Assembly: GCA_015062285.1 (NCBI GenBank)
Contig: SUUY01000001.1
Location: 30,622 to 94,621, forward strand
Reading direction: 5' to 3'
Length of the DNA: 64,000 nucleotides
Origin: Alphaproteobacteria bacterium
GTDB lineage: Bacteria; Pseudomonadota; Alphaproteobacteria; RF32; CAG-239
Below, piece after piece: positions 16,562 through 61,811 of this stretch; the first letter of the stretch is position 1; each line of letters begins with the position of its first letter. Both the position numbers and the translations under genes were made by a program. A model generated the notes under the pieces. It worked only from the letters and a program-made list of their open reading frames with translations, made no database searches and was not told where the DNA came from.

Positions 16562-16574
16562 AGTATATAAAATC

Positions 16575-29885: not shown

Positions 29886-31253
29886 TTAATGATATGATAG
29901 AGCTTGGTTGGTTTTTGCAATGCTATTTGTTAAGCGCTGGGAATCTTTAGAAAAGTTCATGTTTTCAAAAATATAAAGGGAATCATGAAAATACTCTAAA
30001 GCTTCTTCAAAATAAACTCTATCTGCACTTTTTTTGCCAAGTCGATAATATATATCTCCAATGCTTTCTTGGATTTTTGCCCATAGCAAGGGCTCTCTTT
30101 TTTCGGTGATGATTTTTTGCTGATTTTTATATGCAGCAATTGCCAGTTCTGCAATTTCATAACTTGAAGTTGTTTGGCTTAATAAGGACAAATAGTATCC
30201 CAAGTTGCCTTCTATTTGAGCCCATAAGCCGGGGAATAGAGCGTATGTAAATATCTTTTCGGCTTCTCTAAGGTGAAAAACAGAATCTCGCAAAGCTTGT
30301 AAATCTTCTTTTTGTTTCCAATAATTGTAAAATAGTGATGATAACCGGTATGAAATCAATCCATATTCATAAGGGTAAGTGTATTTGCCGAAATATTTTT
30401 GTGCCAACTGATAATTGTATATTGCATTGCGATATGAATTAATGGGACGTTTTGAGTTGCTTTGTGATATGCAAGAATATAATTGTCCCAAATGAGCATG
30501 CAAACACCCTAAGTGCAAAGGATTTTTAACGGCATCTTTGTGGCTAAGAGCTGTATCAAACAGACTTTTAACAATTTTAAAATCTTGCTCTGTTTCGGAT
30601 TTTGCACAGTAACTTAAATAGATTAATCCCAAAAAATTCATGATGTATGGCATGTACTCAAATGATATTGACTTTGTTGAGGTGTCGGAAGACAACTTTG
30701 CTATGATTTTCTTTAAGAGATATTTTTTTTGAATTTGTTTAGTTTTGTCTTCGGTATTGATTGAAGCAATAACTGCGCCATAAAGAAGATTTATTAAAGG
30801 TGTCGGAAAAGAAGATGCGTTTGTAAAGAAAGACGCAGGAAAGTATAAGCTATCCATTAGCGTTACAAAGCTATCGTTAGTGACTTCATATTGAGATGAG
30901 GTTTGGAAGTTTAGACGAATTTTATCTCCCTCGCGGCATCCCCAGATAAGGACATCGGCAGAGGAATCATCTAAAATGCTCTGACCTTTATCAACGAGAT
31001 CAAACAAGGTTCGGCTTTCTAAATTTAAAAAGCTTTTATCAAAGGGTTTATCATAATAAATTACAGAAAGTCCTTCGCATTTTTTTAGTAATGATGATGC
31101 TGTTTCTCCGCCTGTACTTTCAACAATATCTAAAAATTCGGCAACAACTATGTTGAAATTTATATTTAAATGATTTTCCATCATTAAATCGTCGTCACTT
31201 TGCGGACGAGGGCGTAAAAAAGTCTTTTTTAAAAATTCTAAAATTTGTGCCAT
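29886..31253 (-). CDS. Hypothetical protein, possibly TPR-like helical repeats at C-terminus
   Basis: 455 aa, Tyr/Leu-rich repetitive helical C-terminal half; no specific motif recognised. Confidence 0.4.
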
Positions 31254-31261
31254 CGATTTTT

Positions 31262-32305
31262 TTATTGGTCCTTATGTTTGAAGAGGTTAGATATTTTCTG
31301 CGTGTTTTCTTTTAAAGATGAAATTGTTGCTGCTGTGGTGTTTACCAGGTTATAAGGCTCTTCTTGCCAATTTGTTATGCGATGCTGTTGCCATAAAATT
31401 ACGAAAGAACAAAAGATAAATAAAGAATAATTATTGGGCGCAAACGCTTGGAAACAGCCTAAAAGCAACGCCATTAAGCCGTTTCTTGTCCAAAAATGTT
31501 CAAGAATAATGACCGGACAATTTGTTGATTTGGCTAATCCAAAAGCGGTATAATGTTTTATTTGCTTTTTGGGCGTTTTTTTAAATATCATTTTTATTAG
31601 AGCATAAACGCTTTCGCAAAAAAATGGTAATAGAAAAATGAGTAACGAAGATAAAGATGCTTCTGCGGTGCCACATACAGTGAAGGCGCCGATCAGAACT
31701 CCGGTAGCTTCTGTCTCAATATCTGATAAAGGTTTTGTTTGATATCGTCTGTTAGAAACAAAAGGTAGTGTTGTTGCGCATAAAACGCCGCCTGCAATAC
31801 CTAAAGCAAAAGGTGTCGCTCCAATTATGGATAAAATGAAAATGCCAAGCCCAAAAACATTGATTATGCGGTATATTTGAGTTGGAAAAACATTAATTAT
31901 TTTTAGGCCATAAATTAAAAATAACCATAGACCAATTAAAGATAATTGTTCGATTGTTTTAGGTATATTTATATGTGAATGGCTTGAATAATCGAAGTAA
32001 AATATAAGAAATGATATTGTTGCAAAAGTGGTTATAAAACGGATAAATGCAGGTGTCTTTATGAAGAAAAATACCAAATACAACAAGGCAAAACCAAATG
32101 GTGTATAAAATGACCATATATCAGAAGAAGATATTATATCTGTTGTGTTGTTAGCATATAATGCGTAAAAAAATATTGATCCGTAGAGTAAGGCAAAAAT
32201 ACCGAGCGACGGATATGTTTTTGTAGAACAAAAATGCTTAATAATCAGAGATCCGGCAAAACATATCAAGAAAACGGATGCGATAATTATGTGTTGAAGT
32301 GTCAT
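31262..32305 (-). CDS. Hypothetical polytopic membrane protein
   Basis: 347 aa, ~10 hydrophobic segments. Confidence 0.5.
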   Translation of the reverse strand: MTLQHIIIASVFLICFAGSLIIKHFCSTKTYPSLGIFALLYGSIFFYALYANNTTDIISSSDIWSFYTPFGFALLYLVFFFIKTPAFIRFITTFATISFLIFYFDYSSHSHINIPKTIEQLSLIGLWLFLIYGLKIINVFPTQIYRIINVFGLGIFILSIIGATPFALGIAGGVLCATTLPFVSNRRYQTKPLSDIETEATGVLIGAFTVCGTAEASLSSLLIFLLPFFCESVYALIKMIFKKTPKKQIKHYTAFGLAKSTNCPVIILEHFWTRNGLMALLLGCFQAFAPNNYSLFIFCSFVILWQQHRITNWQEEPYNLVNTTAATISSLKENTQKISNLFKHKDQ

Positions 32306-32386
32306 GTTTTTTACCCTTAAGGTTTGGCTTATGCTGAAAGTATAAGCTTTGTTGTGTTTATCTTCAAGAATGAATGCAATGTTATT

Positions 32387-33295
32387 CTATATATTATTAA
32401 ATATCATTTTTAATGTGGGAAATCTCTTTTCATCTAAAGCAACACCTTGAAAAATTATGTTAAATAGTCTTTCCGTATAAATGTTGAAAGATTTTGAATC
32501 TTGCGGAATGGGTGTGTTGAGGTTATTTGGTGTGTTTTGTAAAATGTTTATAACTTTGTTGGTGTCTATGGTTTGAGATTTTAGGTTTGCTATATGTGAA
32601 ATTTCCTTTAGGCAATTATCTGTTTGGAGGCGAATGCTATCGTTTTTATACAGTAACTGTGGGTGCTGCTTTAAGCACAAGCAAAGCAAAAATAAAACTC
32701 TTATGGCAATCCATTCCCAATGGCAAGAATCAAAAGAATCTGATAATTCTATGTTTATTTTGCTATTTTTGAATATTTCTTGAAGGATGTTAACATGGAT
32801 ATCTTTGGTATCGGATGGTAAATATAAAGTAACGCCAAGATCGGAATTTGAAATGGTGTTTTTGTGCTTCCATAATAAGGAAAGATTACGAGCTTCAATA
32901 GGAGCTGATTCTAAAATTTCCTTGAGCATGGTTTGAGGAGAGTAGGGGGTTAAATTTAAGATTAGAGAATTTTGTAGTTTTGCTGTAGAAATAAGCAGCA
33001 GATCATTGCGTAGTGAAGTGATATCAGAAGCTATTATCAGTAAATCTGAGACGTCATTTTGTTCAAATGAAAAGAAAAATTTAGCTTGGTGATGTTGCAA
33101 AAAATGAGAATCCTTAAAAATAAAGTCAGTAGCATTATATTCATCAGACAGTTGAGGTGAGCATATGATTTTTACTGTATGTCCAATATTTTGAAGATCG
33201 TTTGCTATGGTCAGACTTAAGGCGCTATCACCTAAAATGCTGATTTTTTTAGGATTAGGATTTTTTTGAGGAGTTAAAACTTTTGAAAAAAACAT
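32387..33295 (-). CDS. Hypothetical protein with degenerate Rossmann-like N-terminus
   Basis: KISILGDSALSLTIANDL resembles a degraded dinucleotide-binding fold (ApbA/PanE-like?), weak. Confidence 0.35.
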   Translation of the reverse strand: MFFSKVLTPQKNPNPKKISILGDSALSLTIANDLQNIGHTVKIICSPQLSDEYNATDFIFKDSHFLQHHQAKFFFSFEQNDVSDLLIIASDITSLRNDLLLISTAKLQNSLILNLTPYSPQTMLKEILESAPIEARNLSLLWKHKNTISNSDLGVTLYLPSDTKDIHVNILQEIFKNSKINIELSDSFDSCHWEWIAIRVLFLLCLCLKQHPQLLYKNDSIRLQTDNCLKEISHIANLKSQTIDTNKVINILQNTPNNLNTPIPQDSKSFNIYTERLFNIIFQGVALDEKRFPTLKMIFNNI

Positions 33296-35782: not shown

Positions 35783-36493
35783 TTGTATATTGATAAAAGA
35801 GGTGTTGAAATGCATAGATTGATGGATAGGTTTATTGAATTGCTTAAATGGCCAGTGGCTGTTTATATGCTTGTTTCTTTGCCGGCATATATTCAGTCTT
35901 TGGCGTATTTTAAGTTTGCTTCTTTGCAGTATTTGGTTTTGGGTGGTGGCTTTTTCTTATTCTTTATTGCCAGAAGTATGATGGACTCAAGTGTGAAAGT
36001 AAACATGGAAATACTGGCTCATGAGATGACGCATGCTTTTTTTGCATTTATTACGTTTCATAGAGTAAAAGGAATTAGGATTGAGGGTGACAATTCCGGT
36101 GGAGAAATGGCTTTTGAAGGCGAAGGAAATTGGCTTATAATTATTGCTCCATACTTTTTTCCGTTGTTTGGACTTGTTTATTTAATTATTTTCTCGCTTT
36201 ATACTTCTTTTGTTTCTACCAGTTTGTTTTTGAATGGAATTTTAGGCTATTTTATAGGGTATCATCTTGATACGGTTGGTTCTCAGATTCATGAAAAACA
36301 AACTGATTTGCCCAAAGTTTCTTATAAATTTTGTGCTATGTTTTTACCTTCGGCCAATTTGTGGGCGGTGGGATCAATGTTAGCTTTTAACTCTAAAGGA
36401 TGGGCAGGGATATGGACATATCAAAAATTAATTGCATATTTAAATGCCAAAAATTTTGATTTTGTTTTGGATTTTATTCGTCAGTTTTTTTGA
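35783..36493 (+). CDS. Membrane protein with HExxH motif (putative zinc metalloprotease)
   Basis: Several TM segments; ILAHEMTHAFFAF contains HEMTH. Confidence 0.5.
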   Translation: MYIDKRGVEMHRLMDRFIELLKWPVAVYMLVSLPAYIQSLAYFKFASLQYLVLGGGFFLFFIARSMMDSSVKVNMEILAHEMTHAFFAFITFHRVKGIRIEGDNSGGEMAFEGEGNWLIIIAPYFFPLFGLVYLIIFSLYTSFVSTSLFLNGILGYFIGYHLDTVGSQIHEKQTDLPKVSYKFCAMFLPSANLWAVGSMLAFNSKGWAGIWTYQKLIAYLNAKNFDFVLDFIRQFF

Positions 36494-37341
36494 TCTAATG
36501 CTTTAGTAAGTGCTAAAAATTGTACAGGTGATATTTCTTCTGGTCGGTGCGAACATTCTATGCCGGCGGCCTTGCATGCAGAATCTAAATTTAGCATGTT
36601 TTTTAAACTTTGGCGTATCATTTTGCGACGAGAGTTAAAGGTTAACGCTGTTAATTTTTCAATTTTATTTATTTCTTCAAAGCTCAAAGTTTTTTCCCTG
36701 GGTTGAAACAATAGTACGGTTGACCATATTTTGGGCGCAGGAACAAAACATTCTGGATTAAGGTCAAAAAGTTTTGTGATTTTGCATTGAAGCTGGGATA
36801 GAACAGATATTCTTCCGTAGCTTTTGCATGATGTTGGGGCTAAAATACGGTCAGCTACTTCTTTTTGAAACATTAAAGTGAGGCTTTGGTAGTTGTTTAT
36901 TTGATATAGCCATTTTATAAGCAAAGGTACAGATATGTTGTAAGGTAGATTAGATACAATATGCGTTGGTTCTGTTTGTTTTGGGAAGTCATATTTTAGA
37001 GCATCGCCATCAATAATCTCCATAACATTTCCTGTTTTTGATCGGAGCTCCTCCATGATAGAAATACATCTCTTATCCATCTCTATTACAGTTAATTTTT
37101 TGGGGTTTGTTTTAAGGATAGCTCGGGTTAAGCCTCCGGGGCCGGGGCCTATTTCAAACACATGGCTTTTGTTAAAATTTTCCAGATTTTGTTTTATTAG
37201 AGATGATCGTATGATTTTATCTGTTATATTTTGATCCAGCAAAAAATTTTGCCCAAGATTTTTATTTGCAAAAAGATTATGGGCTTCCACCGTGGTGCGT
37301 AAAGAAGGGAAGGACGCAATTATTTCTTTTAAATCCGACAT
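36481..37341 (-). CDS. rsmA: 16S rRNA (adenine1518/1519-N6)-dimethyltransferase RsmA/KsgA
   Basis: GQNFLLDQNI motif; SAM site EIGPGPGGLT. Confidence 0.9.
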   Translation of the reverse strand: MSDLKEIIASFPSLRTTVEAHNLFANKNLGQNFLLDQNITDKIIRSSLIKQNLENFNKSHVFEIGPGPGGLTRAILKTNPKKLTVIEMDKRCISIMEELRSKTGNVMEIIDGDALKYDFPKQTEPTHIVSNLPYNISVPLLIKWLYQINNYQSLTLMFQKEVADRILAPTSCKSYGRISVLSQLQCKITKLFDLNPECFVPAPKIWSTVLLFQPREKTLSFEEINKIEKLTALTFNSRRKMIRQSLKNMLNLDSACKAAGIECSHRPEEISPVQFLALTKALDQKN

Positions 37342-37344
37342 CTG

Positions 37345-38259
37345 CTAATTCCTGATTTCGATTACAGCTTTTTGATGTAAATCTTGAAGCAGTTGTCGAG
37401 ATAAACTTTCCATTTTTTGATTTTCAAGCAAAATGCGGATATCATCTTCTGTGGGAATTTGCGGTTTGTCTTGTTTAGGGTCAAAAGTTTGCAGTAGTTT
37501 TATTATGTAATATCCGTCATTTAAGAAAATAGGATCACTGACATCGCCTTCAGACATTTTTTGTAATCGCATTTCGATGGAGGACGGAAGTTTTCCTGTG
37601 TTGACCCAGCCTAAATTTCCTCCGTTGGCAGCACTTGGTGCTTCAGAAAATTGCATAGCGTATAATTCAAAACGCTCATCTTTGCGAAGATTTGACACCA
37701 GAAGATGAATGTCTTTTGCGTTTTCTTTTTTAATAAATATTTCAGATATTAAATATTTTGGTGTATTTAAATCTTTTTTTGCTTCTTCGAGCATGGTGTT
37801 AATTTCTTTTTGTGTAATTGTGCCGTTTCCATAATGTCTTTTTCGAATTAAACGTAACCATGCCAAATCAGCTTGAAGCTGTTCCTTAAAACTATCTTCA
37901 CTTATTTTTGCTTGTTTTAATATAGTGGATAGCTGTCCCTTAGGGATGTTGTTGTTTTTTTCGAATCTTTTCATTTGTTCATCAACTTCTGCTTCTGAGA
38001 TTGTAATTCCTTCGTTTTGTGCTGCTTGAAGTTTTATTTTTTCATCGATGGTGTTGTTTAAAACTTTTTGTTTAATCAAGCTTTGAGTTTGTGAATTCAT
38101 AGGAATCTTAGAACTTAATAAAAAAAGATTTGTTTTATTGTTTATGTCTTCTGAAGATATAATTTCACCGTTAACCAGAGCATGAATTTTTAATTCTGTT
38201 CCAAAAGAGAGGTTTGTGTTTATGAGGATAAATGAAATTATTAAAAAAATCTTTTTCAT
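37345..38259 (-). CDS. surA: SurA-like periplasmic chaperone/peptidyl-prolyl isomerase
   Basis: Signal peptide; position between rsmA and lptD as in the proteobacterial lptD-surA-(pdxA)-ksgA cluster. Confidence 0.7.
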   Translation of the reverse strand: MKKIFLIISFILINTNLSFGTELKIHALVNGEIISSEDINNKTNLFLLSSKIPMNSQTQSLIKQKVLNNTIDEKIKLQAAQNEGITISEAEVDEQMKRFEKNNNIPKGQLSTILKQAKISEDSFKEQLQADLAWLRLIRKRHYGNGTITQKEINTMLEEAKKDLNTPKYLISEIFIKKENAKDIHLLVSNLRKDERFELYAMQFSEAPSAANGGNLGWVNTGKLPSSIEMRLQKMSEGDVSDPIFLNDGYYIIKLLQTFDPKQDKPQIPTEDDIRILLENQKMESLSRQLLQDLHQKAVIEIRN

Positions 38260-38270
38260 CTTTGTTCTCC

Positions 38271-40514
38271 TTATTTTGTTCCTACGCCGCCAAGAGTTTT
38301 GAGGAAGAATGTTGCTCCAAATTTAAAGTCTCCTTCATAGTTGGGATCGTTGGAGTTTTCTTTTTCTATATTGAATATAACTTTGGTACATTCATCTTCA
38401 TAAGTAAGAAATGCTCCTTTTTCAAGGGATCCACCGTTTTTGGCCATGTCTTGCCTGTTATATAAACTTAAAGCCCAATTCTTTGTTACATTAGCTCGCA
38501 GCATTGTATATAATTCTTCTCGTTCGGAGTTTGCAATAGATGATGTTTTGTTTGCCTGAAAGAAAATATATGATACATAAAGTTTGAGTATTTTAGGTCC
38601 GATATTAGAAGATAATTCGCTGTATGTTAATTTATAGTCGTCCTTGTCTAATTTAAAGCGATAGTTAAGATCAAAATATTCTGTTGGAGAAGCATATATT
38701 CTTCCTGCGTAATCAGTAAAGTCTCCGTGTTCTCCATCTGCTGCAGCAAAGCTTTCGTTCTTACTGAACTCATAGCTTTGAGCTAACATAGCTGATGTTC
38801 TTCCCCATTTTTTTCCGTAGGAACTCCAGTTCAATCCATAGCTTATGCGGCTTCCGGTATCATTACGATCATAACCTGAATAGCGATCTAAATTTAAGAT
38901 GTTAGTGTCGTTTAGTTCTACGTCTTGACTATCTTCGTTTGGTATTTCGTCAGCCTTATTACTTTGATTGGGAGCCAAAGCAGCAACAATTATCGGTTCT
39001 ATAATTTGGCTTGATTCTTCTGTGTTGCGAATAAACGGCAAACGCCATTCTAAACCGACTTGCGGGAATATACGTCCGACAACGCCATCGTATACATCGG
39101 TTTTATTATAACGGTAGTCGTTCACATAATATAAATCAGATTTTAATGATGCTACCAATTTATATTTTTCACCATAAGGACTTGTGTATGGTAAATTCCA
39201 TGAGTTTATCATAGAAAGGCGTTGGCTGGAATTATCTTCTTCATGTGTAACAGAAGCCAAACTAAAGGTGTTTTTATTATATGCACCAAACTTGGTTGGA
39301 TCGCTAATGTTCTCATAAACAAAAAGAGGCATAACATAAGGACGATTTGCATAACGCAGATCATAACTTAGTATTTTATAGTAATATGCTTCTAAAGCCG
39401 CATAGTTGCGATTATCAAAGCCTTGCAAACTTGCTCTTGATGTTAACCAGGTATCATCTTTTTTGGGTAAAGATAAATCTTTTAAGTAGGCATTATCTGA
39501 TGCATAGTTGATATCGGCATCAGCTACCCAAAAATCATTTACCTCATATCTTCCATAAGCAAAAAGGTTTCCTCTATTTTCTTTTGTATCCGGATCTCTT
39601 AAAAAAGTTCCGCTTGCAGAAATGTTGCCTCTGGTGAAGTAACGATTGTATGTTCCTCCATATACAATACCTTTATCGCTACTTATTATGGGGTTGAATA
39701 AAATGTCTTCGTGGTCAGATATATCCCAAAAATATTGCCCTTGAATAGCCCCTCCTAAGTATGAGTTGCTGGAAATTTTGGGAAATAGAAATCCGGATCT
39801 TCTTTTTACAGTAGGATCGGGGTGTGAAAGGAAAGGGGTGTAAAATACAGGAACGCCTTTTATCTCAACGGTAGCATTTTGATAGTGCATGTCTTGATCT
39901 TCGGCATCGTGTTCTACTTTTCGAGCTTTTATTTGCCACAACGGATTAGAATTACGACAGGTATCGCAAGGAGTATAAACAACATTGGTCATTATTTTTT
40001 TGTCTTTTTCTAAACGACGAAATTTTTTGGCGGCAATTCGTGTTTTATCTGCCATTATGATCTTGATGTTTTCCATTTCACCTTTGCTCATTTTATCGGT
40101 GAGTTCAACTCGATCCGAAAAAACAACATTGCCGGTTTCTTCAAGGATTACAACATTGCCCAGAGCTGTAATGGTATCTTCTTTTTGGTTGTATATGACT
40201 TTATCTGCTTTGACTGTTATATTATCTCGAATAATTTCAACATTTCCAATAGCCGTTATGACACTAAGCTCTTGGTTGTTTTCCAACTCGTCGGCGCTGA
40301 AATATATTTCCGGATTATCGCCGTTTTCAGGTGCTTTAGGTGTCACAACATTTGTGATGTTTACTTCTGGAGAAATGCGTGGAGCTTTAAGGCGAGTAAT
40401 TTGGTGAATGGTTTTTTGAGTGTCGGGTCTAACAATGCTATCGGCAAAAAGAGGAAAAGCATAGCATGTTGAAGCAAGCAGAACTACGATTTTTAATAGT
40501 TTTGATTTATGCAT
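38271..40514 (-). CDS. lptD: LPS-assembly outer membrane protein LptD
   Basis: Large beta-rich OMP; signal peptide MHKSKLLKIVVLLASTCYAFPLFA (start trimmed from ORF-track 40592); conserved neighbourhood. Confidence 0.85.
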   Translation of the reverse strand: MHKSKLLKIVVLLASTCYAFPLFADSIVRPDTQKTIHQITRLKAPRISPEVNITNVVTPKAPENGDNPEIYFSADELENNQELSVITAIGNVEIIRDNITVKADKVIYNQKEDTITALGNVVILEETGNVVFSDRVELTDKMSKGEMENIKIIMADKTRIAAKKFRRLEKDKKIMTNVVYTPCDTCRNSNPLWQIKARKVEHDAEDQDMHYQNATVEIKGVPVFYTPFLSHPDPTVKRRSGFLFPKISSNSYLGGAIQGQYFWDISDHEDILFNPIISSDKGIVYGGTYNRYFTRGNISASGTFLRDPDTKENRGNLFAYGRYEVNDFWVADADINYASDNAYLKDLSLPKKDDTWLTSRASLQGFDNRNYAALEAYYYKILSYDLRYANRPYVMPLFVYENISDPTKFGAYNKNTFSLASVTHEEDNSSQRLSMINSWNLPYTSPYGEKYKLVASLKSDLYYVNDYRYNKTDVYDGVVGRIFPQVGLEWRLPFIRNTEESSQIIEPIIVAALAPNQSNKADEIPNEDSQDVELNDTNILNLDRYSGYDRNDTGSRISYGLNWSSYGKKWGRTSAMLAQSYEFSKNESFAAADGEHGDFTDYAGRIYASPTEYFDLNYRFKLDKDDYKLTYSELSSNIGPKILKLYVSYIFFQANKTSSIANSEREELYTMLRANVTKNWALSLYNRQDMAKNGGSLEKGAFLTYEDECTKVIFNIEKENSNDPNYEGDFKFGATFFLKTLGGVGTK

Positions 40515-41634
40515 CGTGAGCTCCCTCAAATGCTGTTTTTCTTCTGAACAACGAAGGTCTGTAAAAATGTAAAAGGTATACGCAAATAACAAAAGGTGTT
40601 GTAACGTTTAGATATACGGCGCAAAGCCAACATAAGTTCTTTACGGCTAAATTGCATAAAGCTAAGTCCAGAGCCTGAATAATAACCATTGTTCCTACGG
40701 AAATAGAAACAATCTTGGCTTGGCCTCTACGATTGAAATTTCCGATCAATAGTCCGGTACAGGCTATTAAAGCATAAATTAAATTTAGAAGAGGGGTTAT
40801 AAACCTCTTGTTACCTTCCACAAACCACCGTCTGGCTTCTTTGGCCTCCAAATTAGGATTTGACATTGCACTAAGCAAGTCGTGGAGACTTTGTTCTCTT
40901 GCTCCGGCAGCTTTGCGAGCTTTTGTTCCTTTTGCTCCAAAATCAACAGAGTATCTGTCAAACAAAATAGAGCTGAATTGTCCGCTTTTGTTGTTGATTT
41001 CTTGGCGGTTGCCATTAACAAGAATGATGCGTGGACCCTTATCGGTATGAATTATACGGCCAAGTTCGGCAGAAATGGTTGATTTTGTTTGGGGATTGCG
41101 TTCATCATTTATAAGAACTCCTCCAACTGAGCCGTCAGGTTCATGAGATCCGATGAATACTGTTAGTTTGGGCTGAAGAGTGGTAAATTCCCCTTCGCGG
41201 AACATTAAGTGAGATACATCATTTTTGATTTGCCATTGAAGGTCGTGAAAAGCATCTTCGGCTGCAGGGATAACAATATTCATGACGTAGATATTGAACA
41301 CTGTCATGATCAGGCCAAACATCATGGCCGGTTTGGCGTTCTGCCAAGGGCTGATGCCTGCTGCTTTCATCACAACAAGTTCACGGTCGGAAAGCATACG
41401 ATTATATACAAATAAAATAGCAGCAAACAGAGATATTGGGGATAAGATCGTAAAAATACGAGGCATTAGAAGCGATGTCAGCTCGGCAAAAAGGCCGACA
41501 GAAATGCCTTTGTTGGTAATAAGGTCTACGAATCGCAAAGACTGTGTCAGCCAAATGATTGACATCAGCGAAAAGGAAACCAGCAAAAATCCTACTAAAA
41601 TTTGCTTTATTATGTATAGGTTTAATTTTTTCAT
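40507..41634 (-). CDS. LptF/LptG-family LPS export permease (YjgP/YjgQ)
   Basis: N-terminus MKKLNLYIIKQILVGFLLVSF typical of YjgP/YjgQ permeases (start trimmed from 41802); adjacent to lptD. Confidence 0.8.
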   Translation of the reverse strand: MKKLNLYIIKQILVGFLLVSFSLMSIIWLTQSLRFVDLITNKGISVGLFAELTSLLMPRIFTILSPISLFAAILFVYNRMLSDRELVVMKAAGISPWQNAKPAMMFGLIMTVFNIYVMNIVIPAAEDAFHDLQWQIKNDVSHLMFREGEFTTLQPKLTVFIGSHEPDGSVGGVLINDERNPQTKSTISAELGRIIHTDKGPRIILVNGNRQEINNKSGQFSSILFDRYSVDFGAKGTKARKAAGAREQSLHDLLSAMSNPNLEAKEARRWFVEGNKRFITPLLNLIYALIACTGLLIGNFNRRGQAKIVSISVGTMVIIQALDLALCNLAVKNLCWLCAVYLNVTTPFVICVYLLHFYRPSLFRRKTAFEGAHDA

Positions 41635-41825
41635 AAAAGGGATTATAACTAAATTATCTGATTTAGAAACAAAAATTTTGCAGATAGTACAAGAAATATG
41701 TAAATTTTTGCTTACCAATATGTTTTTTTTATCAAAAATTGAGGAAGTGACAGAATCTTCTTGAATGGCAAATTTTTTGACTCTAAGATGTTGCCAGAAC
41801 AAACATAATTATACAGGAGATGTGT

Positions 41826-42302
41826 ATGGATAATAATTCTTTGGCGGCTCAAACAGCCACCAAGTGGCATAAAAAGCGTGGTTCGCTGATTATGGCTTTG
41901 CATGAAATTCAAGGCGTTAAAGGTTATATTCCTTGGGAAGATGCTGTTGCTGTTGCTGAAGGAATGAATATTCCTTTGGCAAGAATTTATGAGGTTTTAA
42001 CATTTTATAATTTCTTTAAGCTCGATGCTCCGGGTAAGGCTGTTATTTCGGTTTGTACCGGAACAGCGTGCTATTTGAAGGGAAATGACAAAGTTTTAGA
42101 AGAGTTTAAAAAGGAATTGGGAATCGGCGAAGGCGAAAGTACGTCTGATAGAATGTTCCATTTACAAAGTGTGCGTTGTGTGGGGTGTTGCGGTTTGGCT
42201 CCCGTTTGTGTTGTTAACGGCAAGACATATGGTCGTGTTACTCCGGGAGATGTGCGTAATATCTTAGATGAATGGCGTAAAAAACTTAGTGAGGAGGAAT
42301 AA
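41826..42302 (+). CDS. hydC: [FeFe]-hydrogenase NuoE-like subunit (HydC/HndA), [2Fe-2S]
   Basis: Thioredoxin-like ferredoxin with CTGTACYLKG...CVGCCGLAPV cysteine pattern; RBS aggag 6 nt before ATG 41826. Confidence 0.85.
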   Translation: MDNNSLAAQTATKWHKKRGSLIMALHEIQGVKGYIPWEDAVAVAEGMNIPLARIYEVLTFYNFFKLDAPGKAVISVCTGTACYLKGNDKVLEEFKKELGIGEGESTSDRMFHLQSVRCVGCCGLAPVCVVNGKTYGRVTPGDVRNILDEWRKKLSEEE

Positions 42303-42304
42303 AT

Positions 42305-43996
42305 ATGGCTGATGTAAATTTGGATAAAAGGTTTGATATTCACGAAATCGCTAAAAATAAAAACGCAGAACTAGAAAAATATCGCTGCAGTATTTATTGT
42401 TGCCATTCAACCGGATGTAAGTCTTCAGGAAGTGATAGTATTATTGAAATTTTGAAAAATGCTATTGTTGAACACGGAATCGAAGATCAGGTTAGAATCG
42501 TTGCCACCGGATGTATGGGACTTTGTGCACAAGGTCCGTTGATTAGAGTGGAAGTAAAAGGGCAAAAAGATGTTTTGTATAAACGGATCGAGCCATTGGT
42601 AGCAAGACTTGTGGTTACAGAACACGTTGTTCCGGCATTAAAGATAGCTGAAGGCGAATCGTATGAGTTGCCGGCATTCTTACAAGAACATGTTTTGTCT
42701 TTGGATTTGCCGTTCTTTACAAAACAAGAAAAAGTTGTGTTAAGAGATGCAGGTCATATGGATCCGGAAGATATTCAAGAATATATTGCACGCGGCGGAT
42801 ATTTGGCTTTGGAAAAAGTTTTAAAAACCATGAAGCCTTCTGATGTTGTGGAAGAAATTAAAAAGTCTGGTTTGCGTGGCCGTGGTGGCGGTGGTTTTTC
42901 TACCGGTATGAAGTGGGAATTGGCCGCTAAAGTTCCTACTATTGATGAGAAATTTATTATCTGTAACGGTGATGAAGGAGACCCCGGTGCATATATGGAT
43001 CGTTCTATTTTGGAAGGTGATCCGCATTCGGTTATTGAAGGTATGATGATTGCGGCATATGCAATCGGTGCTACTCAAGGTTGGTTCTATGTTCGTGCTG
43101 AATATCCTTTGGCAGTAGAACGTTTGGATAAGGCTATTAAGGCTTGTAAAAAGAATCGCCTGTTGGGTAATAATATTATGGGTACAGATTTTAGCTTTAA
43201 TATTGAAATTAGGCTTGGTGCCGGCGCATTTGTTTGTGGTGAGGAAACCGCGTTGATTCATTCTATTGAAGGCAAAAGAGGTACTCCGCGTCCTCGTCCG
43301 CCATATCCGACAAATAAAGGTTTATGGGGTAAACCTTCTTGCGTGAATAACGTGGAAACACTCGGTAACATCACAAAGATTATCTTAAAAGGTGCTGATT
43401 GGTTTGCTTCTTATGGAACTGAGACCTCTAAGGGTACAAAAGTGTTTGCTTTAACCGGCCAAGTAGAGCATTCAGGTTTGATTGAAGTACCGATGGGTAC
43501 AACAATTAATGAAATTGTGAATGAAATCGGCGGTGGTGTTCCTAATGGTAAAAAGCTTAAAGCTGTTCAAACCGGCGGACCTTCAGGAGGTGTGATCCCG
43601 ACAGAATATTTGGATATGCCGGTGTGCTATGAAGAACTCAAAAAGCTTGGTTCTATTATGGGTTCGGGAGGTATGATTGTTATGGATGATACCTCGGACA
43701 TGGTAAATATTGCCAACTTCTATCTTGATTTTACGGTAGATGAATCTTGTGGTAAGTGTGCTCCATGTAGAATCGGCGGAAAACAAATGCTTTTGTTGCT
43801 TGAAAAGATTAATAAAGGAAAGGCGACAAAACAGGATTTGCAAGACTTAAAGAGAATTGCAACAGCTATGCAAAAAGCATCGCTTTGCGGATTAGGACAA
43901 ACAGCTCCGAATCCGGTGCTCTCTACCTTGAAGTTTTTTGAAAATGAATATTTGGAGAAACTTGTAGATAATAAACCTGCCGGTGAGGAGAAGTAA
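42305..43996 (+). CDS. hydB: [FeFe]-hydrogenase NuoF-like NAD(P)-binding flavoprotein subunit (HydB/HndC)
   Basis: N-terminal [2Fe-2S] domain (CCHSTGC, GCMGLCAQGP); GLRGRGGGGFSTGMKW NADH site; GAGAFVCGEETALIHSIEGKRG FMN site; C-terminal CGKCAPCR [4Fe-4S]. Confidence 0.88.
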   Translation: MADVNLDKRFDIHEIAKNKNAELEKYRCSIYCCHSTGCKSSGSDSIIEILKNAIVEHGIEDQVRIVATGCMGLCAQGPLIRVEVKGQKDVLYKRIEPLVARLVVTEHVVPALKIAEGESYELPAFLQEHVLSLDLPFFTKQEKVVLRDAGHMDPEDIQEYIARGGYLALEKVLKTMKPSDVVEEIKKSGLRGRGGGGFSTGMKWELAAKVPTIDEKFIICNGDEGDPGAYMDRSILEGDPHSVIEGMMIAAYAIGATQGWFYVRAEYPLAVERLDKAIKACKKNRLLGNNIMGTDFSFNIEIRLGAGAFVCGEETALIHSIEGKRGTPRPRPPYPTNKGLWGKPSCVNNVETLGNITKIILKGADWFASYGTETSKGTKVFALTGQVEHSGLIEVPMGTTINEIVNEIGGGVPNGKKLKAVQTGGPSGGVIPTEYLDMPVCYEELKKLGSIMGSGGMIVMDDTSDMVNIANFYLDFTVDESCGKCAPCRIGGKQMLLLLEKINKGKATKQDLQDLKRIATAMQKASLCGLGQTAPNPVLSTLKFFENEYLEKLVDNKPAGEEK

Positions 43997-43998
43997 TC

Positions 43999-45768
43999 AT
44001 GGTTAAGTTAAAAATTGATAATTTTGAAGTAAATGTTCCTGCCGGTACAACTATTTTGGAGGCAGCTCGTAAAGCTCATATTGATATTCCGACTTTGTGT
44101 AAGCATCCAGATGTGGATCCGAGTGCCGGTTGCGGAATGTGTATTGTGAAGGTTAACGGAAGAATCTTGCGTTCTTGTTGTACTCCGGTTGCCGAAGGTA
44201 TGGAAGTTATAACCGGTGACGCAGAAATAGTAGCTGTTCGTCGTACAGTATTGGAATTAATTTTGAGTAATCACCCTAACGAGTGTTTAACTTGTATTCG
44301 TTCCGGTCATTGTGAGTTGCAAGATTTGGCCAATACATTTGCAATCGAATCGTCTCGTTTGCCCAGTTTGAATAAAAAATTGGATAAGGACGAATCGACT
44401 AAATCTATTGTACTCGATCCTTCTAAGTGCGTGGTTTGCGGACGTTGTGTGGAAGTATGTCAAAACCAACAAAATGTTTGGGCCTTAAGCTATCTTAATC
44501 GTGGCTTGGCAACAAGAATTACTGCTGCCGGCGGAATCGATTTGGCAGATAGTCCGTGTATTAAGTGCGGTCAGTGTTCTGCTCATTGTCCGACAGGAGC
44601 TATTGTCGAGTATGATGAAACGCAAAAAGTTTGGGATATGCTTTGTGATCCGGAAATTGTTACCGTGGTTCAGATTGCTCCTGCTGTGAGAGTGGCTATA
44701 GGTGAAGAATTTGGCTATGATTTTGGTAAAAATTTGACCGGTAAAACATATGCTGCTTTGCGTAGATTAGGTTTTAACAAAGTATTTGATACAAACTTTG
44801 GTGCCGATTTGACAATTATTGAAGAGGCAACAGAATTTGTAAAACGCTTTACTGAGAATCCGGAAAGCTTGCCGATGTTTACATCTTGTTGTCCGGCTTG
44901 GGTTGATATGTTGGAAAAATATCATCATGATATGATAGATAATTTCTCAACCTGTAAGTCTCCGCAATCTATGGTGGGAGCTTTGGCAAAAACATATTAT
45001 GCGGAAAAAATGGCTATTAATCCGGCAAAAATTAAAGTTGTTTCCATTATGCCTTGTACGGCTAAAAAATGGGAAATTACCAGAAGCAAGGATATGAGCA
45101 GTTCAGGATATCAAGATGTTGATGTTTCTTTGACTACTCGTGAGCTTTGTCGAATGATTAAACAATCTGGAATTGATTTCCGTAATCTTCCGGAAGAAGA
45201 AGCAGATAATCCGCTTGGCGAATATTCAGGTGCCGGAACAATTTTTGGTGTTACCGGCGGTGTGATGACAGCGGCTTTACGTACGGCATATTTCTATATT
45301 ACCGGAAAAGAGCTGGGTGATTTGGAATTTAAGGAGATCGAAGGTCTGGAAGGTGTTAAGGAAGCCGAAGTTGATATTAAGGGTAACAAGGTGAAAATTG
45401 CAGTAGCTCATGGTTGCGGTAATATTGAGATAATTCTTAACAAGATTAGAGCTGCACGTGAAGCTGGTGAGCCAATGCCATATCACTTTGTAGAAGTTAT
45501 GGCTTGTCGTGGCGGTTGTATATCTGGCGGCGGTCAGCCTAGAGTTATGCTTCCGGGGCAACCTAAACCTCGTGGCATTACTGATGATATTCGTAAGAAA
45601 CGTGCGAAGGGCTTAATGAATGAAGACTTGAAAGCTGCAAATCGTTTGTCTCACCACAATGAGTCTGTAAAGACTCTTTATAAAGAATATTTGGGTGAAG
45701 CAGGCGGACATAGGGCACATGAGTTGTTGCATACAACATATGTGGCTCGTCCTAAGTACAAAAAATAA
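43999..45768 (+). CDS. hydA: [FeFe]-hydrogenase catalytic subunit HydA (H-cluster)
   Basis: N-terminal 2Fe-2S ferredoxin fold; two CxxCxxCxxxCP [4Fe-4S] motifs; H-cluster signatures L1 FTSCCPAW, L2 MPCTAKKWE, L3 EVMACRGGCISGGGQP. Confidence 0.92.
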   Translation: MVKLKIDNFEVNVPAGTTILEAARKAHIDIPTLCKHPDVDPSAGCGMCIVKVNGRILRSCCTPVAEGMEVITGDAEIVAVRRTVLELILSNHPNECLTCIRSGHCELQDLANTFAIESSRLPSLNKKLDKDESTKSIVLDPSKCVVCGRCVEVCQNQQNVWALSYLNRGLATRITAAGGIDLADSPCIKCGQCSAHCPTGAIVEYDETQKVWDMLCDPEIVTVVQIAPAVRVAIGEEFGYDFGKNLTGKTYAALRRLGFNKVFDTNFGADLTIIEEATEFVKRFTENPESLPMFTSCCPAWVDMLEKYHHDMIDNFSTCKSPQSMVGALAKTYYAEKMAINPAKIKVVSIMPCTAKKWEITRSKDMSSSGYQDVDVSLTTRELCRMIKQSGIDFRNLPEEEADNPLGEYSGAGTIFGVTGGVMTAALRTAYFYITGKELGDLEFKEIEGLEGVKEAEVDIKGNKVKIAVAHGCGNIEIILNKIRAAREAGEPMPYHFVEVMACRGGCISGGGQPRVMLPGQPKPRGITDDIRKKRAKGLMNEDLKAANRLSHHNESVKTLYKEYLGEAGGHRAHELLHTTYVARPKYKK

Positions 45769-45790: not shown

Positions 45791-45822
45791 AAGCAAGAGC
45801 AAAAAATGCTCTTGCTTCTTTG
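45791..45822 (+). terminator. Rho-independent terminator after hydA
   Basis: agcaagagc-aaaaaat-gctcttgct followed by tctttgt. Confidence 0.7.
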
Positions 45823-46156: not shown

Positions 46157-46187
46157 CTTGGCAAATTATAGTGAAGGATGTTTGGTT

Positions 46188-46763
46188 ATGAAAAAGTTTT
46201 TGTTGGCGAGTGTTTTTGCTTTGAATGCATGTGGAACAATATTTAAGGGAACAACGCAGGAGATTGTTTTTGACTCAAGTGTAAGCAATACAAAAATATA
46301 TATAGATGGAATAGAGGTTTGCACAACTCCGTGTAAGGCTTTTGTTGATAGATCTTCTGATGCAATTCAAGTGGTAGGTAAGAAAAAAGGATATGAAAAC
46401 AAGGTAATAACTTTGCGTTCAACAATCAATAGAACATCTTATTGGAACCTTATAGGCATATATAGTTGGTCAACTGATGCCATAACAGGAGGGGTTTGGG
46501 AATACAAAAACAATCATGTATATTTGCAAATGGAGCCTAAGGGTATGAATGCATCTGAGCAGCAAATTTTTGATAAATTGAGTGAAGCGAAACATTTTGC
46601 ATTGTTTAACTTTGATAATTTGCGTTTGGAAGCAGCCAAAGGGATGTTTGGAGAATATACCAACGCTCTCAGTGAACTTAGTGCAATTGAGAATAAAAAA
46701 TTACAACAAATTGTGAGTAATTCGGATTCTGAAATAGAATTAGCCAATGCTTTGGGTAATTAG
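46188..46763 (+). CDS. Hypothetical lipoprotein
   Basis: MKKFLLASVFALNACGT signal/lipobox; start trimmed from 46158 to 46188 (RBS gaagga). Confidence 0.55.
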   Translation: MKKFLLASVFALNACGTIFKGTTQEIVFDSSVSNTKIYIDGIEVCTTPCKAFVDRSSDAIQVVGKKKGYENKVITLRSTINRTSYWNLIGIYSWSTDAITGGVWEYKNNHVYLQMEPKGMNASEQQIFDKLSEAKHFALFNFDNLRLEAAKGMFGEYTNALSELSAIENKKLQQIVSNSDSEIELANALGN

Positions 46764-47866
46764 CCATCTTCAAGATGCAAAAGTAAAGATACGGAAATAA
46801 GTGTTGCAATTAGGGTGGGGGTTGATACGGCAAGTCCTACCGGAATATAGCCGTTTATGCCAAAAGCATACACTAATTGGGTGAGAAAATAAACAATGAA
46901 TCCGGTAGTAATTCCACCTACAATTAAAAACATAACACCACCACGGCGATTGTTGGGGCGAAGAGCAAAAACGGCGGCAACTAATACCATTGAACATAGT
47001 AAAAATGGTGAAACTAATAAGGACAAATATCTCAATCTGTGTCTTATGGCTGAGAATCCTGATGTTTCGTAAAATTTGATGGTGTCAGGCAGATCCCAAA
47101 AAGAAATAGATTCCGGAGCAACAAAGTTTTCTTTGATTCTGTCTGCATCCAAAGATGTCTTATAGCTAAGAGAGTTTTTTGTTTCAATTGCTTGACCTGA
47201 GATATATATCTTTACGTCTTTAAGCTCAAAGTGTCCGTCTTTGAGAGTGCCAACAAAGGCTTCTAATCGACGACTTGGCTGAGATTTTCTATCCATTTCA
47301 AGAATTGTAACGTTGCGTAGGAGTAAGTCTTCTTTTTCTTGACGAAGGGATTTTGCCTGCAAAACCATGATATTATCTTCATCAAGGGCCTCTCTGATCC
47401 AAAGACCTTGATCAGAAAAAAGAACTGCTTTAGGGTTTTTTGTTTTTAAGCGATATTCTAGGGTTTCATACATGTCGTACATGTCGGCTGCGACCGGATT
47501 TATCAGTGTTACATTGATAATTCCTACCACAAAGGTTGCGGTTAAGACGGGGAGGAGAAAACCCCAAATGGAAACTCCGGCTGCTCGCATAATAACAAAT
47601 TCGTTTGTTTTGCTCAGTTTCCAAAAAGTTGCCATAGCGGCAATCATCATAACAAACGGAAAAACCATTTCGATGGTTTTAGGCATTTTGGTTATGGCCA
47701 TTTGAAGGATAAACCAAAAGCTTGCGTCATATTTGCTTGATGCCCTACGGAGTAATTCTACAATTTCGAACAACATAACAACACTTAAAACCATGAAAAG
47801 AACGGCAAAAAAATTGAGTAAAATTTGTTTAGTAAGATAGCGTCCTAAAATTGATGTGGGTTTCAT
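46760..47866 (-). CDS. LptF/LptG-family LPS export permease (YjgP/YjgQ)
   Basis: MKPTSILGRYLTKQILLNFFAVLFMVLS N-terminus and six-TM topology typical of the family; paralog of 40507-41634. Confidence 0.8.
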   Translation of the reverse strand: MKPTSILGRYLTKQILLNFFAVLFMVLSVVMLFEIVELLRRASSKYDASFWFILQMAITKMPKTIEMVFPFVMMIAAMATFWKLSKTNEFVIMRAAGVSIWGFLLPVLTATFVVGIINVTLINPVAADMYDMYETLEYRLKTKNPKAVLFSDQGLWIREALDEDNIMVLQAKSLRQEKEDLLLRNVTILEMDRKSQPSRRLEAFVGTLKDGHFELKDVKIYISGQAIETKNSLSYKTSLDADRIKENFVAPESISFWDLPDTIKFYETSGFSAIRHRLRYLSLLVSPFLLCSMVLVAAVFALRPNNRRGGVMFLIVGGITTGFIVYFLTQLVYAFGINGYIPVGLAVSTPTLIATLISVSLLLHLEDG

Positions 47867-59852: not shown

Positions 59853-60767
59853 ATGAAGAAGTTTTTTTTAGAACAGAGTGATGATAAAAAACATCATCTG
59901 TTTGTATGGGATTCTGCAACGGGGCAGATGTCTTTACTGGCTGTGAGTGATTTTGCAAAACAGATAGATTTTTCTTCGTTTATTATTAAAAACGAAAAAG
60001 AATCTTATAATGTTTTTACTTTATCTGAAGGTTGTATCGAAAAATTTGTGGTGCCAAATGCAAATATCGAGATATATAATAAATGTTTTATATGGCAAGA
60101 TGAAGGTGTTTGGTTTGGCGGTCATACACAAAATGATATAGTACGCTTAGGAGAACGTTTTGCCGCTCGAATGAGTATTACAGCTTGTGTGATGTGTAAC
60201 ACTAATAAATGGCTTTATTTTATTGATGAGCAAGATGATGGAAGAATGTATCTTACTTTTATCAGAAAAAATGGTTTTTATCGGTGCGGACCATATAAAA
60301 AGCTAGAACACGGCTGTGCGGATAAACTAATTGCCTATAAGGATGATATATATTGTGATATATATATTCCTTATTCACCGTATCTTGAATGTCCTAAAAA
60401 AGACGACAAATCGTTTAGCTCTTTTTTTATGCCGGATAAAGCATTTTATTGGCAAGATAAAGAAAGAGCGTGGCTGTGTATGGGAAAAGGAGTAGCATTG
60501 GCAGCAAATGCATTTCAGGAACATTATCTGAAAGATGATAAACCATATGCCAGGTTGTACGAGGTTGTTGGTAAAGAGAAGAAGCTTGTTACTGAGGGTA
60601 GATTTGATGCTACAAGAAATGGAGATAAATATGATGATCACCATTTTATAGTGACATGCGTTGATGGTTTCTTATATCCTTATCGAGAGAGTGACAGAAA
60701 AATAGATTTTTCTAGTCCGAAACCGACATTATCACGAAAACTAAAAAAGATTTTTACCGGAAAATAG
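59853..60767 (+). CDS. Cys/Trp-rich WG-repeat-like protein with basic C-terminal tail (paralog family member 1)
   Basis: 304 aa; NKWLYFIDEQDDGRMY WG-like motif; C-terminus RKIDFSSPKPTLSRKLKKIFTGK shared with 61899-62759. Confidence 0.6.
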   Translation: MKKFFLEQSDDKKHHLFVWDSATGQMSLLAVSDFAKQIDFSSFIIKNEKESYNVFTLSEGCIEKFVVPNANIEIYNKCFIWQDEGVWFGGHTQNDIVRLGERFAARMSITACVMCNTNKWLYFIDEQDDGRMYLTFIRKNGFYRCGPYKKLEHGCADKLIAYKDDIYCDIYIPYSPYLECPKKDDKSFSSFFMPDKAFYWQDKERAWLCMGKGVALAANAFQEHYLKDDKPYARLYEVVGKEKKLVTEGRFDATRNGDKYDDHHFIVTCVDGFLYPYRESDRKIDFSSPKPTLSRKLKKIFTGK

Positions 60768-60771
60768 AAGA

Positions 60772-60803
60772 AAATCCTTCTGCTTTTGCAGAGGGATTTT
60801 TTT
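60772..60803 (+). terminator. Rho-independent terminator
   Basis: aaatccttctgc-tttt-gcagagggattt-ttttt. Confidence 0.75.
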
Positions 60804-60872
60804 GTTGCAAAATAGTGAGCAGTGTTGTATTTGATTCTTTAATATCATTATTATTAATTAAAATACGTTTAT

Positions 60873-61778
60873 ATGAAAAAGTTTATTATTAAAAAAATTT
60901 TGACAGCAAAAGAACTATCTAAGCTGGGCAGAAAGATTTTGGAAAAAGTAAGTGCTTCTACTTTGTCCAGAATTGTTGCTGAATGTGCAGATTCATTTGG
61001 CGAGGCACAAGAGTATATTGTAGCCAGCAAGTGCTATGAAGAAGCTATCTTAAAATGTACAACCATGTTGGGGTGTCCATCTAGTGAAATTCTTCGGGTA
61101 TTGGTTGAACGGGGAAAGTATCATGCATTGTATGCAGCCAATCTGGAAGAAATGGATTCTTTTTGTGTATCTAAGATTTTGGAAATCTCTGAGGTGAATG
61201 ATAGACTTCGTCTTAAAGTCCTTACGGAGTGTTGTTTAGACTTAGCTGCTTGGGACCGCATTTTACGCCAAAAAAACAATCATTTAGAGTTGTTATTGGC
61301 GTTGAGAAATAAAAAAGCGGAAAAACTGAACAGTAATTTTGTGAGCGGTATTCTAGCTCGAGAAAATGAAGAAGAAATTGCCGCTATGATTGAAAAAGGA
61401 GTTTCGCCAAAAGCGTGGTCTCTCTTGTTGAAAATTCCGAAATGGAAGCAAAAGACATTTGAGCGTCTGGAAAAAGAGCCTTTGAACGAATGGGCCGAGG
61501 AAATTGGTAAATACGCGTTTACTGAGGGTTCTGACTCGGATCGCCGGTCTTTCATGTGCATTTTCTGTAAAAAGTATGCCACGGAAAAGTTTACAATCCC
61601 TCACGTGATTGTGGAATTGCTTGTTGCCAATAACGAAAACAAGTATTTGATTGAGTATTTTGAAGCCGGCGGACTTTTAGATCAGAGGTCTTATGCTTTA
61701 GTGACGTTGGATAATAATCCGAAAGTTATTAAAGCAATGAAGACTTGGCCGGTACAGCGAAGGTTGGTAAAAGAGTAG
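60873..61778 (+). CDS. Hypothetical alpha-helical protein
   Basis: 301 aa, own promoter-like AT-rich upstream region and terminator; no motif recognised. Confidence 0.45.
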   Translation: MKKFIIKKILTAKELSKLGRKILEKVSASTLSRIVAECADSFGEAQEYIVASKCYEEAILKCTTMLGCPSSEILRVLVERGKYHALYAANLEEMDSFCVSKILEISEVNDRLRLKVLTECCLDLAAWDRILRQKNNHLELLLALRNKKAEKLNSNFVSGILARENEEEIAAMIEKGVSPKAWSLLLKIPKWKQKTFERLEKEPLNEWAEEIGKYAFTEGSDSDRRSFMCIFCKKYATEKFTIPHVIVELLVANNENKYLIEYFEAGGLLDQRSYALVTLDNNPKVIKAMKTWPVQRRLVKE

Positions 61779-61782
61779 TAGA

Positions 61783-61811
61783 AAAAGCAGTCTGATAAGA
61801 CTGCTTTTTCT
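61783..61811 (+). terminator. Rho-independent terminator
   Basis: aaaaa-gcagtc-tgataa-gactgc-ttttt. Confidence 0.8.

Follow-up and report, generated by a model that had tools for sequence, protein, structure and literature searches.

The window analysed here, the whole 64,000-nucleotide stretch of contig SUUY01000001.1 from an Alphaproteobacteria bacterium, carries a three-gene operon, hydCBA. Analysis of its sequence confirmed the operon as one predicted to encode an intact, NADH-linked, trimeric [FeFe]-hydrogenase of the HydABC/Hnd type in an alphaproteobacterial genome. The HydB subunit combines a bifurcating-type core with the loss of the ferredoxin branch, and the enzyme is probably a secondarily de-bifurcated hydrogenase that would couple NADH/NAD+ directly to H+/H2, ferredoxin playing no part. 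In about 77 gut species the operon is ancestral and has been kept by selection.

The original prediction, made from the letters of the window, had placed three co-directional hydrogenase genes in this interval, and open reading frames (ORFs) for hydC, hydB and hydA were found there on the + strand, separated by intergenic gaps of 2 nt (Table 1). An AGGAG at 41815-41819 lies 6 nt 5' of the hydC ATG at 41826; an alternative start at 41820 would give a product of 160 aa, and the gene call of the Joint Genome Institute (JGI) is the 158-aa form. Domain content and motifs bore out the trimeric HydABC/Hnd-type architecture that had been proposed.

Pfam searches resolved HydA into Fer2_4, NADH-G_4Fe-4S_3, two Fer4 and Fe_hyd_lg_C (E 7e-97) domains, followed by a C-terminal small-subunit-like domain (Fe_hyd_SSU), and the protein scored 786 bits against the NCBIfam model NF040763 ('NADH-dependent [FeFe] hydrogenase, group A6'; cutoff 765). 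The H-cluster motifs were read against the patterns L1 TSCCPxW, L2 MPCxxKxxE and L3 ExMxCxxGCxxGGGQP, and all were complete (L1 FTSCCPAWV, L2 IMPCTAKKWE, L3 EVMACRGGCISGGGQP), so that the three intact motifs claimed earlier (TSCCPAW, MPCTAKKWE and the L3 sequence) are indeed present in the translation. The F-domain was likewise complete, with the Fer2_4 [2Fe-2S] site, a His-ligated [4Fe-4S] site (HPNECLTCIRSGHC) and two CxxCxxCxxxC motifs. The best PDB matches of HydA were Thermoanaerobacter kivui HydA1 (574 bits) and Acetobacterium woodii HydA1 (572 bits), with CpI at 478 bits. Scanning one genome per GTDB species for relatives yielded 80 loci encoding a HydA homologue, about 77 of which have a HydA 71-94% identical to that of the window and come from alphaproteobacterial or gut-bin metagenome-assembled genomes (MAGs). 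Relative to T. kivui HydA1, the window HydA has an insertion of about 10 residues (RVMLPGQPKPRGI; residues ~508-521, window 45520-45560) just past the GGGQP of L3, and the same insertion recurs in relatives L050 and L065.

HydB scored 670 bits against the HydB of the NiFe-hydrogenase of Acetomicrobium mobile and 668 bits against A. woodii HydB in PDB (best E ~1e-200), compared with 391 bits for Thermus Nqo1 and about 285 bits for mitochondrial NDUFV1, its complex I counterparts. It did not reach the NuoF equivalog TIGR01959 (475.7 bits against a cutoff of 558.65), and scores to the NuoE models were also below their cutoffs. Since HydA and HydB both score best against proven bifurcating enzymes, the subunits are not complex-I paralogues; descent as vertically inherited respiratory NuoE/NuoF paralogues, which had been named as a possible refutation, did not hold. 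The extra N-terminal [2Fe-2S] domain that had been proposed for the FMN/NAD(H) subunit was recovered as a weak PF01257 match over residues 27-100 with an intact CxxxxC...CxxxC pattern, and its four cysteines are kept in 76 of the 77 alphaproteobacterial HydB orthologues.

The C-terminal part of HydB differs from that of the bifurcating enzymes. PDB alignments to the bifurcating HydB subunits (597/599 aa) ended at chain residues ~530-536, about 65 residues short of their C-termini, and the window protein, which ends in ...DNKPAGEEK with hydA beginning 2 nt later, terminates 5 residues beyond the Pro that matches T. kivui HydB P565. Its post-core tail of 11 aa contains no Cys, and the C-terminal 2x[4Fe-4S] domain is absent. 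In the alignment the Cys/His hinge site is absent as well: C438, C476, H525 and C531 of A. mobile correspond to D465, N503, K552 and a deletion. The ligand columns read D/N/S-x-K/R in all 77 alphaproteobacterial orthologues, whose tail is at most 19 aa long and has no ferredoxin motif, whereas the outgroup loci L076 and L079 retain the C..H pattern plus two CxxCxxCxxxC motifs. An exhaustive library search over 1.84 billion representatives, 150 of which were compared, revealed that, of about 48 full-length top matches sharing the bifurcating-type core, only 3 have none of the hinge and C-terminal features; one of these three was the window sequence itself, added as a reference, and another was the representative of its cluster. 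The Planctomycetota MAG L075 (12-10252), from an unrelated phylum, likewise has a HydB lacking the C-terminal ferredoxin domain; its gene is followed by hydA, with a hydE-hydG-hydF cluster adjacent.

Every characterised bifurcating [FeFe] hydrogenase conserves the C-terminal cysteines; the hinge His is found in all but 8 of 1558 BfuB sequences and not in non-bifurcating homologues. The hinge site has been modelled as Zn in Thermotoga maritima and T. kivui and as [2Fe-2S] in A. mobile, and ferredoxin has been modelled docking on HydB's C-terminal domain, the proposed ferredoxin entry point. Deletion of P565-G630 from T. kivui HydB left methyl-viologen activity in place and bifurcation activity low (Katsyv et al. 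2023, PMC10021017). Because the hinge site and the C-terminal clusters are lost clade-wide, the window enzyme is probably a non-bifurcating NADH:H2 oxidoreductase. The earlier description of it as possibly electron-bifurcating is thus disfavoured, as HydB is missing the features by which bifurcating BfuB is defined, namely the hinge ligands and the C-terminal 2x[4Fe-4S] domain.

Several observations weigh against this reading. The bifurcating-beta signatures of Losey 2020 (A/E232, M234, F367 and GGPSG in T. maritima numbering) are all present and invariant, comprising the A..M of PGAYMDR (A229, M231), the F of GAGAFVCGEE (F309) and GGPSG (424-428) of the window HydB, in which the complex-I-like alternatives (T/S232, K/S/A234, Y367, no GGPSG) were not found. 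The N-terminal [2Fe-2S] domain of HydB is retained. Neither hydE nor hydG of this genome turned up in the window or the scanned flanks. NADH-driven H2 formation by non-bifurcating enzymes, finally, reaches only 2-40 Pa H2, which is hard to square with life in the gut, except for an enzyme operating in H2 uptake or within a syntrophic partnership. The residues of HydB thus say bifurcating and its clusters say not; the cluster evidence outweighs the residue signatures because the clusters have mutational support.

The enzyme might instead still be an electron-bifurcating or confurcating HydABC that forms H2 from NADH and reduced ferredoxin supplied by pyruvate:ferredoxin oxidoreductase (PFO, PFOR), with ferredoxin docking elsewhere or a separate ferredoxin-like protein replacing the C-terminal domain. 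The strict conservation of the bifurcating-type residues at the NAD/FMN site and of GGPSG in 77 of 77 orthologues would fit this, as would the overall similarity of HydA and HydB to proven bifurcating enzymes, the low bifurcation activity of the T. kivui truncation, which the paper does not call abolished (PMC10021017), and the gene for a 79-aa 2x[4Fe-4S] ferredoxin on the same contig as hydCBA. PFO and small ferredoxins are also reported for related MAGs (PMC4967309). However, the hinge site and C-terminal clusters are kept in every characterised bifurcating enzyme and nearly all BfuB and lost throughout this clade, neither the window nor its relatives have a ferredoxin-like gene within or adjoining the operon, and natural BfuB variants without these clusters are predicted or were shown to be non-bifurcating. 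We therefore regard retained bifurcation as a distinctly less probable account, still to be taken seriously, and direct NADH:H2 coupling as the better one.

For the de-bifurcated enzyme we infer the following cofactor path, ferredoxin independence and catalytic direction. HydB would have descended from an electron-bifurcating type, and the ferredoxin branch, consisting of the hinge metal site and the C-terminal 2x[4Fe-4S] pair, would have been lost in the common ancestor of the clade. The product would be a cytoplasmic heterotrimer in which NAD(H) at the HydB flavin exchanges electrons with the HydA H-cluster, by way of the core [4Fe-4S] cluster of HydB, the [2Fe-2S] clusters of HydB and HydC and the F-domain clusters of HydA. 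Such an enzyme would couple NADH/NAD+ reversibly to H+/H2 with no need for ferredoxin, and the predicted physiology would no longer be confurcating H2 production; it would be direct NADH:H2 coupling, perhaps in the form of H2 uptake.

Gut H2 usually stands much higher than 2-40 Pa, so NAD+ reduction may be the main direction of catalysis, except where H2 is kept low locally. On this basis we raise, tentatively and as something we would not yet expect to hold, the possibility that the clade has a naturally de-bifurcated Bfu hydrogenase working mainly as an H2-oxidising, NAD+-reducing uptake enzyme. If true, these abundant uncultured gut bacteria would be hydrogenotrophs rather than H2 producers, and their HydB would be a natural test case for which of its elements bifurcation needs.

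The window contained no maturase genes by motif searches and Pfam/NCBIfam models. The same motifs and models, applied to the window plus 83 loci (1.55 Mb), detected HydF only in L034 (TIGR03918, 511 bits) and HydE, HydG and HydF together only in the Planctomycetota locus L075. The orthologue retrieved with the L034 HydF, P0321, shares with the window HydA both its longest contig (615,557 bp) and a 189-kb JGI contig, and lies at window-equivalent positions ~69,932-71,155, which is 5.9 kb past the window end. The proposal to look for maturases elsewhere in the genome was therefore borne out for HydF, on the same contig, and not for hydE and hydG, which were absent from the window and flanks. Maturation would then proceed through this HydF, presumably with HydE and HydG encoded elsewhere.

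In locus L083, which is on the same contig as the window, the interval 10001-20432 (about 6-16 kb past the 3' end of the window) contains hydF followed by a methyltransferase gene, pntB/pntA, chromate-transporter halves and hslVU-like genes. Genes for a HemN-like radical SAM protein and the 79-aa 2x[4Fe-4S] ferredoxin were also found in this locus, and a Na+/H+ exchanger gene lies upstream of hydF. The pntB/pntA pair near hydF encodes a proton-translocating transhydrogenase.

The loss of three metal sites from HydB could also mark a decaying or non-functional relic, or a HydA homologue with a redox-sensing or other non-catalytic role, and the NCBI record of the window HydA (MBE6444512.1) labels it just '2Fe-2S iron-sulfur cluster binding domain-containing protein'. 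We consider this very improbable: the H-cluster motifs and F-domain cysteines are all intact with no frameshifts, the three hyd genes evolve about half as fast as their neighbours across about 54 genomes, a dedicated maturase gene, hydF, has been kept on the same contig, and the identical sequence occurs on 23 contigs.

The relatives of the window come from human, roe and water deer, sheep, buffalo, rabbit, chicken and mouse guts and are titled 'Alphaproteobacteria bacterium', 'Azospirillum sp. 51_20', 'uncultured Azospirillum sp.', 'Proteobacteria bacterium CAG:495' and 'Candidatus Scatocola faecigallinarum', names that we take to belong to GTDB order RF32, family CAG-239. NCBI taxonomy places Candidatus Scatocola in the Rhodospirillales. 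The CAG-239 family is described in the literature as an uncharacterised gut lineage without many biosynthetic modules, and these missing modules are probably the source of an endosymbiont-like impression. The original prediction had read the surroundings as Rickettsiales/Holosporales-like and obligate-intracellular-looking, a reading not sustained by the comparison: the nearest genomes are dozens of animal and human gut MAGs, and in at least one relative a flagellin-like ORF (judged by sequence) stands right after hydA. The host would accordingly be best described as an uncultured, reduced-genome gut alphaproteobacterium resembling RF32/CAG-239.

Chimeric assembly, which had been named as a possible refutation, was rejected. 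An identical HydA was found on 23 contigs from different metagenome assemblies, with like neighbours, and the 189-kb JGI contig was 100% identical to the window over 33999-55768 and 59932-64000. Identity to independently assembled contigs indicates that the window is not chimeric.

Comparison of the related loci revealed that the block ksgA-surA-lptD-lptF is divergent from hydCBA in 53 of the 80, spanning the whole 71-94% range of HydA identity. Pairwise distances of HydC+B+A and of KsgA+SurA+LptD+LptF were strongly correlated across 54 genomes (Mantel Spearman r=0.889, permutation p=0.001), with the hyd distances 0.47x those of the neighbouring housekeeping genes. GC content at third codon positions (GC3) was 0.305-0.333 in the hyd genes against a window mean of 0.311 (standard deviation 0.045), and codon-usage distances were ordinary; the slightly raised total GC of the operon (0.40-0.41) was not seen at third positions. 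The operon thus stood next to lptF already in the ancestor of the clade and has been inherited vertically under purifying selection: the conserved junction, the co-varying distances and the native codon usage together argue for vertical descent within the clade and against recent insertion. In L016 an extra 562-aa ORF (5980-7668) lies between lptF and hydC, and L017, L021, L024 and L027-L031 have an lptF-hydC gap of ~1.2-1.9 kb that presumably holds the same ORF; the gap is absent from the window.

On the other side of the operon the neighbours vary. When the 10-kb flanks of relatives were compared, lptG adjoined hydA in the window species only. In the closest other species (L001-L014) the 10 kb past hydA holds flagellin-like, RNase PH, rdgB and addB genes; in deeper members lptG lies 6.5-8 kb off in either orientation, within the cysK/rimP-nusA-infB neighbourhood, or is absent from the 10-kb flank. 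The 3' end of hydA is a recurrent rearrangement breakpoint, as these variable right-hand neighbours indicate, and the split of lptG from lptF is a lineage-specific coincidence. Moreover, with lptD directly after lptF, this layout does not amount to a simple break between neighbouring lptG and lptF genes. The ancestral order in Alphaproteobacteria is probably lptF-lptG-lptD.

These data bear on the earlier proposal, in which an obligate-intracellular, Rickettsiales/Holosporales-like symbiont had recently gained an H2-evolving operon by horizontal transfer, between its paired lptG and lptF genes. The operon does sit between lptG and lptF in the window, and its overall GC is slightly above that of its immediate neighbours. 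Yet the relatives are gut MAGs and not endosymbionts, and composition offered nothing foreign: with GC3 on the window mean and native codon usage, recent horizontal gene transfer was rejected on this ground. The lptF-hydC junction is kept in 53 loci and co-diverges with housekeeping genes, and the adjacency of lptG, on which the suggestion of horizontal acquisition rested, is specific to this species. Recent acquisition is accordingly hard to credit.

Beyond the alphaproteobacterial clade, the next-best HydA sequences (58% identity) belong to Planctomycetota, Dehalococcoidia and Candidatus Caenarcanum. This low identity to unrelated phyla, a further point that could be cited for acquisition, makes an ancient transfer of the operon into the clade ancestor likely. 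The nearest HydB representatives were labelled only as HndC, NuoF and, in one case, Oscillospiraceae, so a donor lineage of HydB could not be named from them.

Table 1. Coordinates of the hydrogenase operon and its flanking features in the window
Feature	Position	Strand	Description
lptF-lptD-surA-ksgA housekeeping block	36481-41634	-	divergent from hydCBA; Pfam, NCBIfam, JGI annotation
lptF	40507-41634	-	NCBIfam; ORF extendable to 41802, but homologues begin near 41634
lptF-hydC divergent intergenic region	41635-41825		promoters presumably here
hydC	41826-42302	+	158 aa, NuoE-like thioredoxin-type [2Fe-2S] subunit; PF01257 E 4e-47
hydB	42305-43996	+	563 aa, NuoF-like FMN/NAD(H) subunit; Pfam Complex1_51K, SLBB, NADH_4Fe-4S
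hydA	43999-45768	+	589 aa, M3-type [FeFe]-hydrogenase catalytic subunit; Pfam, NCBIfam
intrinsic-terminator-like hairpin	45791-45817	+	11-bp stem then CTTTGTATGT; closes the hydCBA transcription unit
PEGA-domain lipoprotein-like ORF	46158-46763	+	between hydA and lptG; PF08308 E 2.6e-4
lptG	46760-47866	-	TIGR04408 253.8 bits, cutoff 240

The terminator-like hairpin starts 23 nt past the hydA stop and is one of only 2 such sites in 5.5 kb. A promoter scan was uninformative, with 24 matches against 15.7 +/- 3.7 expected and none convincingly placed, and no promoter was confidently identified between lptF and hydC. The PEGA-domain ORF lies outside the hydrogenase, and no homologue of it was found 3' of hydA in the related loci.

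Elsewhere in the window, two ORFs without a Pfam match (one of 136 aa, and one of 297 aa that is Lys/Glu-rich with GC 0.34 and AT skew +0.22) occupy 9316-10874 (+) between rplO (8753-9205) and secY (11031-12413), within the spc ribosomal-protein operon. The ORF after rpoA (15280-15633, 117 aa; region 14110-15633) also had no Pfam match, and rplQ (L17), at 34707/34788-35240, is not 3' of rpoA, being ~19 kb from it. The ORF at 16575-18989 (-) encodes a membrane H+-translocating pyrophosphatase (PF03030, E 2e-182), adjoining a starch-synthase-like GT5/GT1 protein gene at 19144-21177. Three consecutive ORFs without a Pfam match were found at 29886-33295 (-; 455, 347 and 302 aa) and another three at 59853-62759 (+; 304, 301 and 286 aa), where the ORFs starting at 59853 and 61899 are weakly paralogous to each other (22% identity, E 4e-14).

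The trimeric HydABC/Hnd group A3/A6 enzyme is in itself a well-known kind, and a close precedent exists. Passages of Degli Esposti et al. 2016 (PMC4967309) describe a cluster of NuoE, NuoF and an M3-type [FeFe]-hydrogenase in the gut MAGs 'Azospirillum sp. CAG:239' and 'Acetobacter sp. CAG:977', and report HydE/F/G, PFO and small ferredoxins in the gut MAGs CAG:239, CAG:977, CAG:260 and CAG:267. That cluster has the same three-gene arrangement, habitat and apparently lineage as the window operon and comes from a different species; cluster look-ups of the HydA matches linked the window HydA to none of the CAG:239 accession numbers. It is called HymABC-like there, and the passages that treat it make no mention of missing HydB clusters. 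With this cluster and its maturases published for related gut MAGs, the hydrogenase is less unusual than first supposed. The argument for the origin of eukaryotes was also attached to the gut cluster in the same 2016 passages, and later work gave eukaryotic [FeFe]-hydrogenases complicated histories rich in horizontal transfer. The bearing on mitochondrial and hydrogenosomal origins that had been suggested for the window operon does not hold: the organism is a member of a widespread gut lineage, and HydB and HydC are of the Bfu lineage, not of the complex-I lineage that mitochondria and hydrogenosomes share.

Among structurally characterised enzymes, the best PDB matches were HydABC of A. woodii and T. 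kivui (7q4v, 8a6t) and the NiFe-HydABCSL of A. mobile (7t2r), at 572-574 bits for HydA and 585-670 bits for HydB. The window enzyme shares with these bifurcating enzymes HydC, the N-terminal [2Fe-2S] domain and core [4Fe-4S] cluster of HydB and the A..M, F and GGPSG signatures; unlike theirs, its HydB has neither the Cys/His hinge (Zn or [2Fe-2S]) nor the C-terminal 2x[4Fe-4S] domain of ~65 aa. The truncation point of the engineered T. kivui delta-Bc-term variant (PMC10021017) is essentially equal to the end of the window HydB, which therefore mirrors in nature a construct made for probing the mechanism of bifurcation. The engineered variant keeps the hinge ligands, however, whereas the natural protein has replaced them, a state maintained by selection clade-wide.

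Two groups of enzymes have similarly reduced subunits. Syntrophomonas wolfei Hyd1ABC and Syntrophus aciditrophicus HydAB (Losey et al. 2017, 2020) are non-bifurcating, NADH-dependent, trimeric NuoE/NuoF/HydA enzymes whose beta subunit, like the window HydB, has no C-terminal [4Fe-4S] pair, and by analogy the non-bifurcating S. wolfei Hyd1ABC is the predicted functional counterpart of the window enzyme. Their beta subunits have T/S..K/S/A, Y and no GGPSG, whereas the window HydB shows the opposite, bifurcating-type residues, and the loss in the window clade therefore seems to have arisen independently. Sub-type II BfuABC of Hydrogenedentota, Acidobacteriota and Planctomycetota (PMC11406978) likewise has a natural FeS-poor BfuB that is predicted to be non-bifurcating; it lacks B3, B4 and the N-terminal B5, whereas the window HydB keeps its N-terminal [2Fe-2S] and lacks the hinge and B3/B4. 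Since residue-based and cluster-based predictors disagree on the window HydB, it offers a good discriminating case between them. What appears to be new, against the literature compared, is the clade-wide loss of the ferredoxin branch from an otherwise bifurcating-looking HydB.

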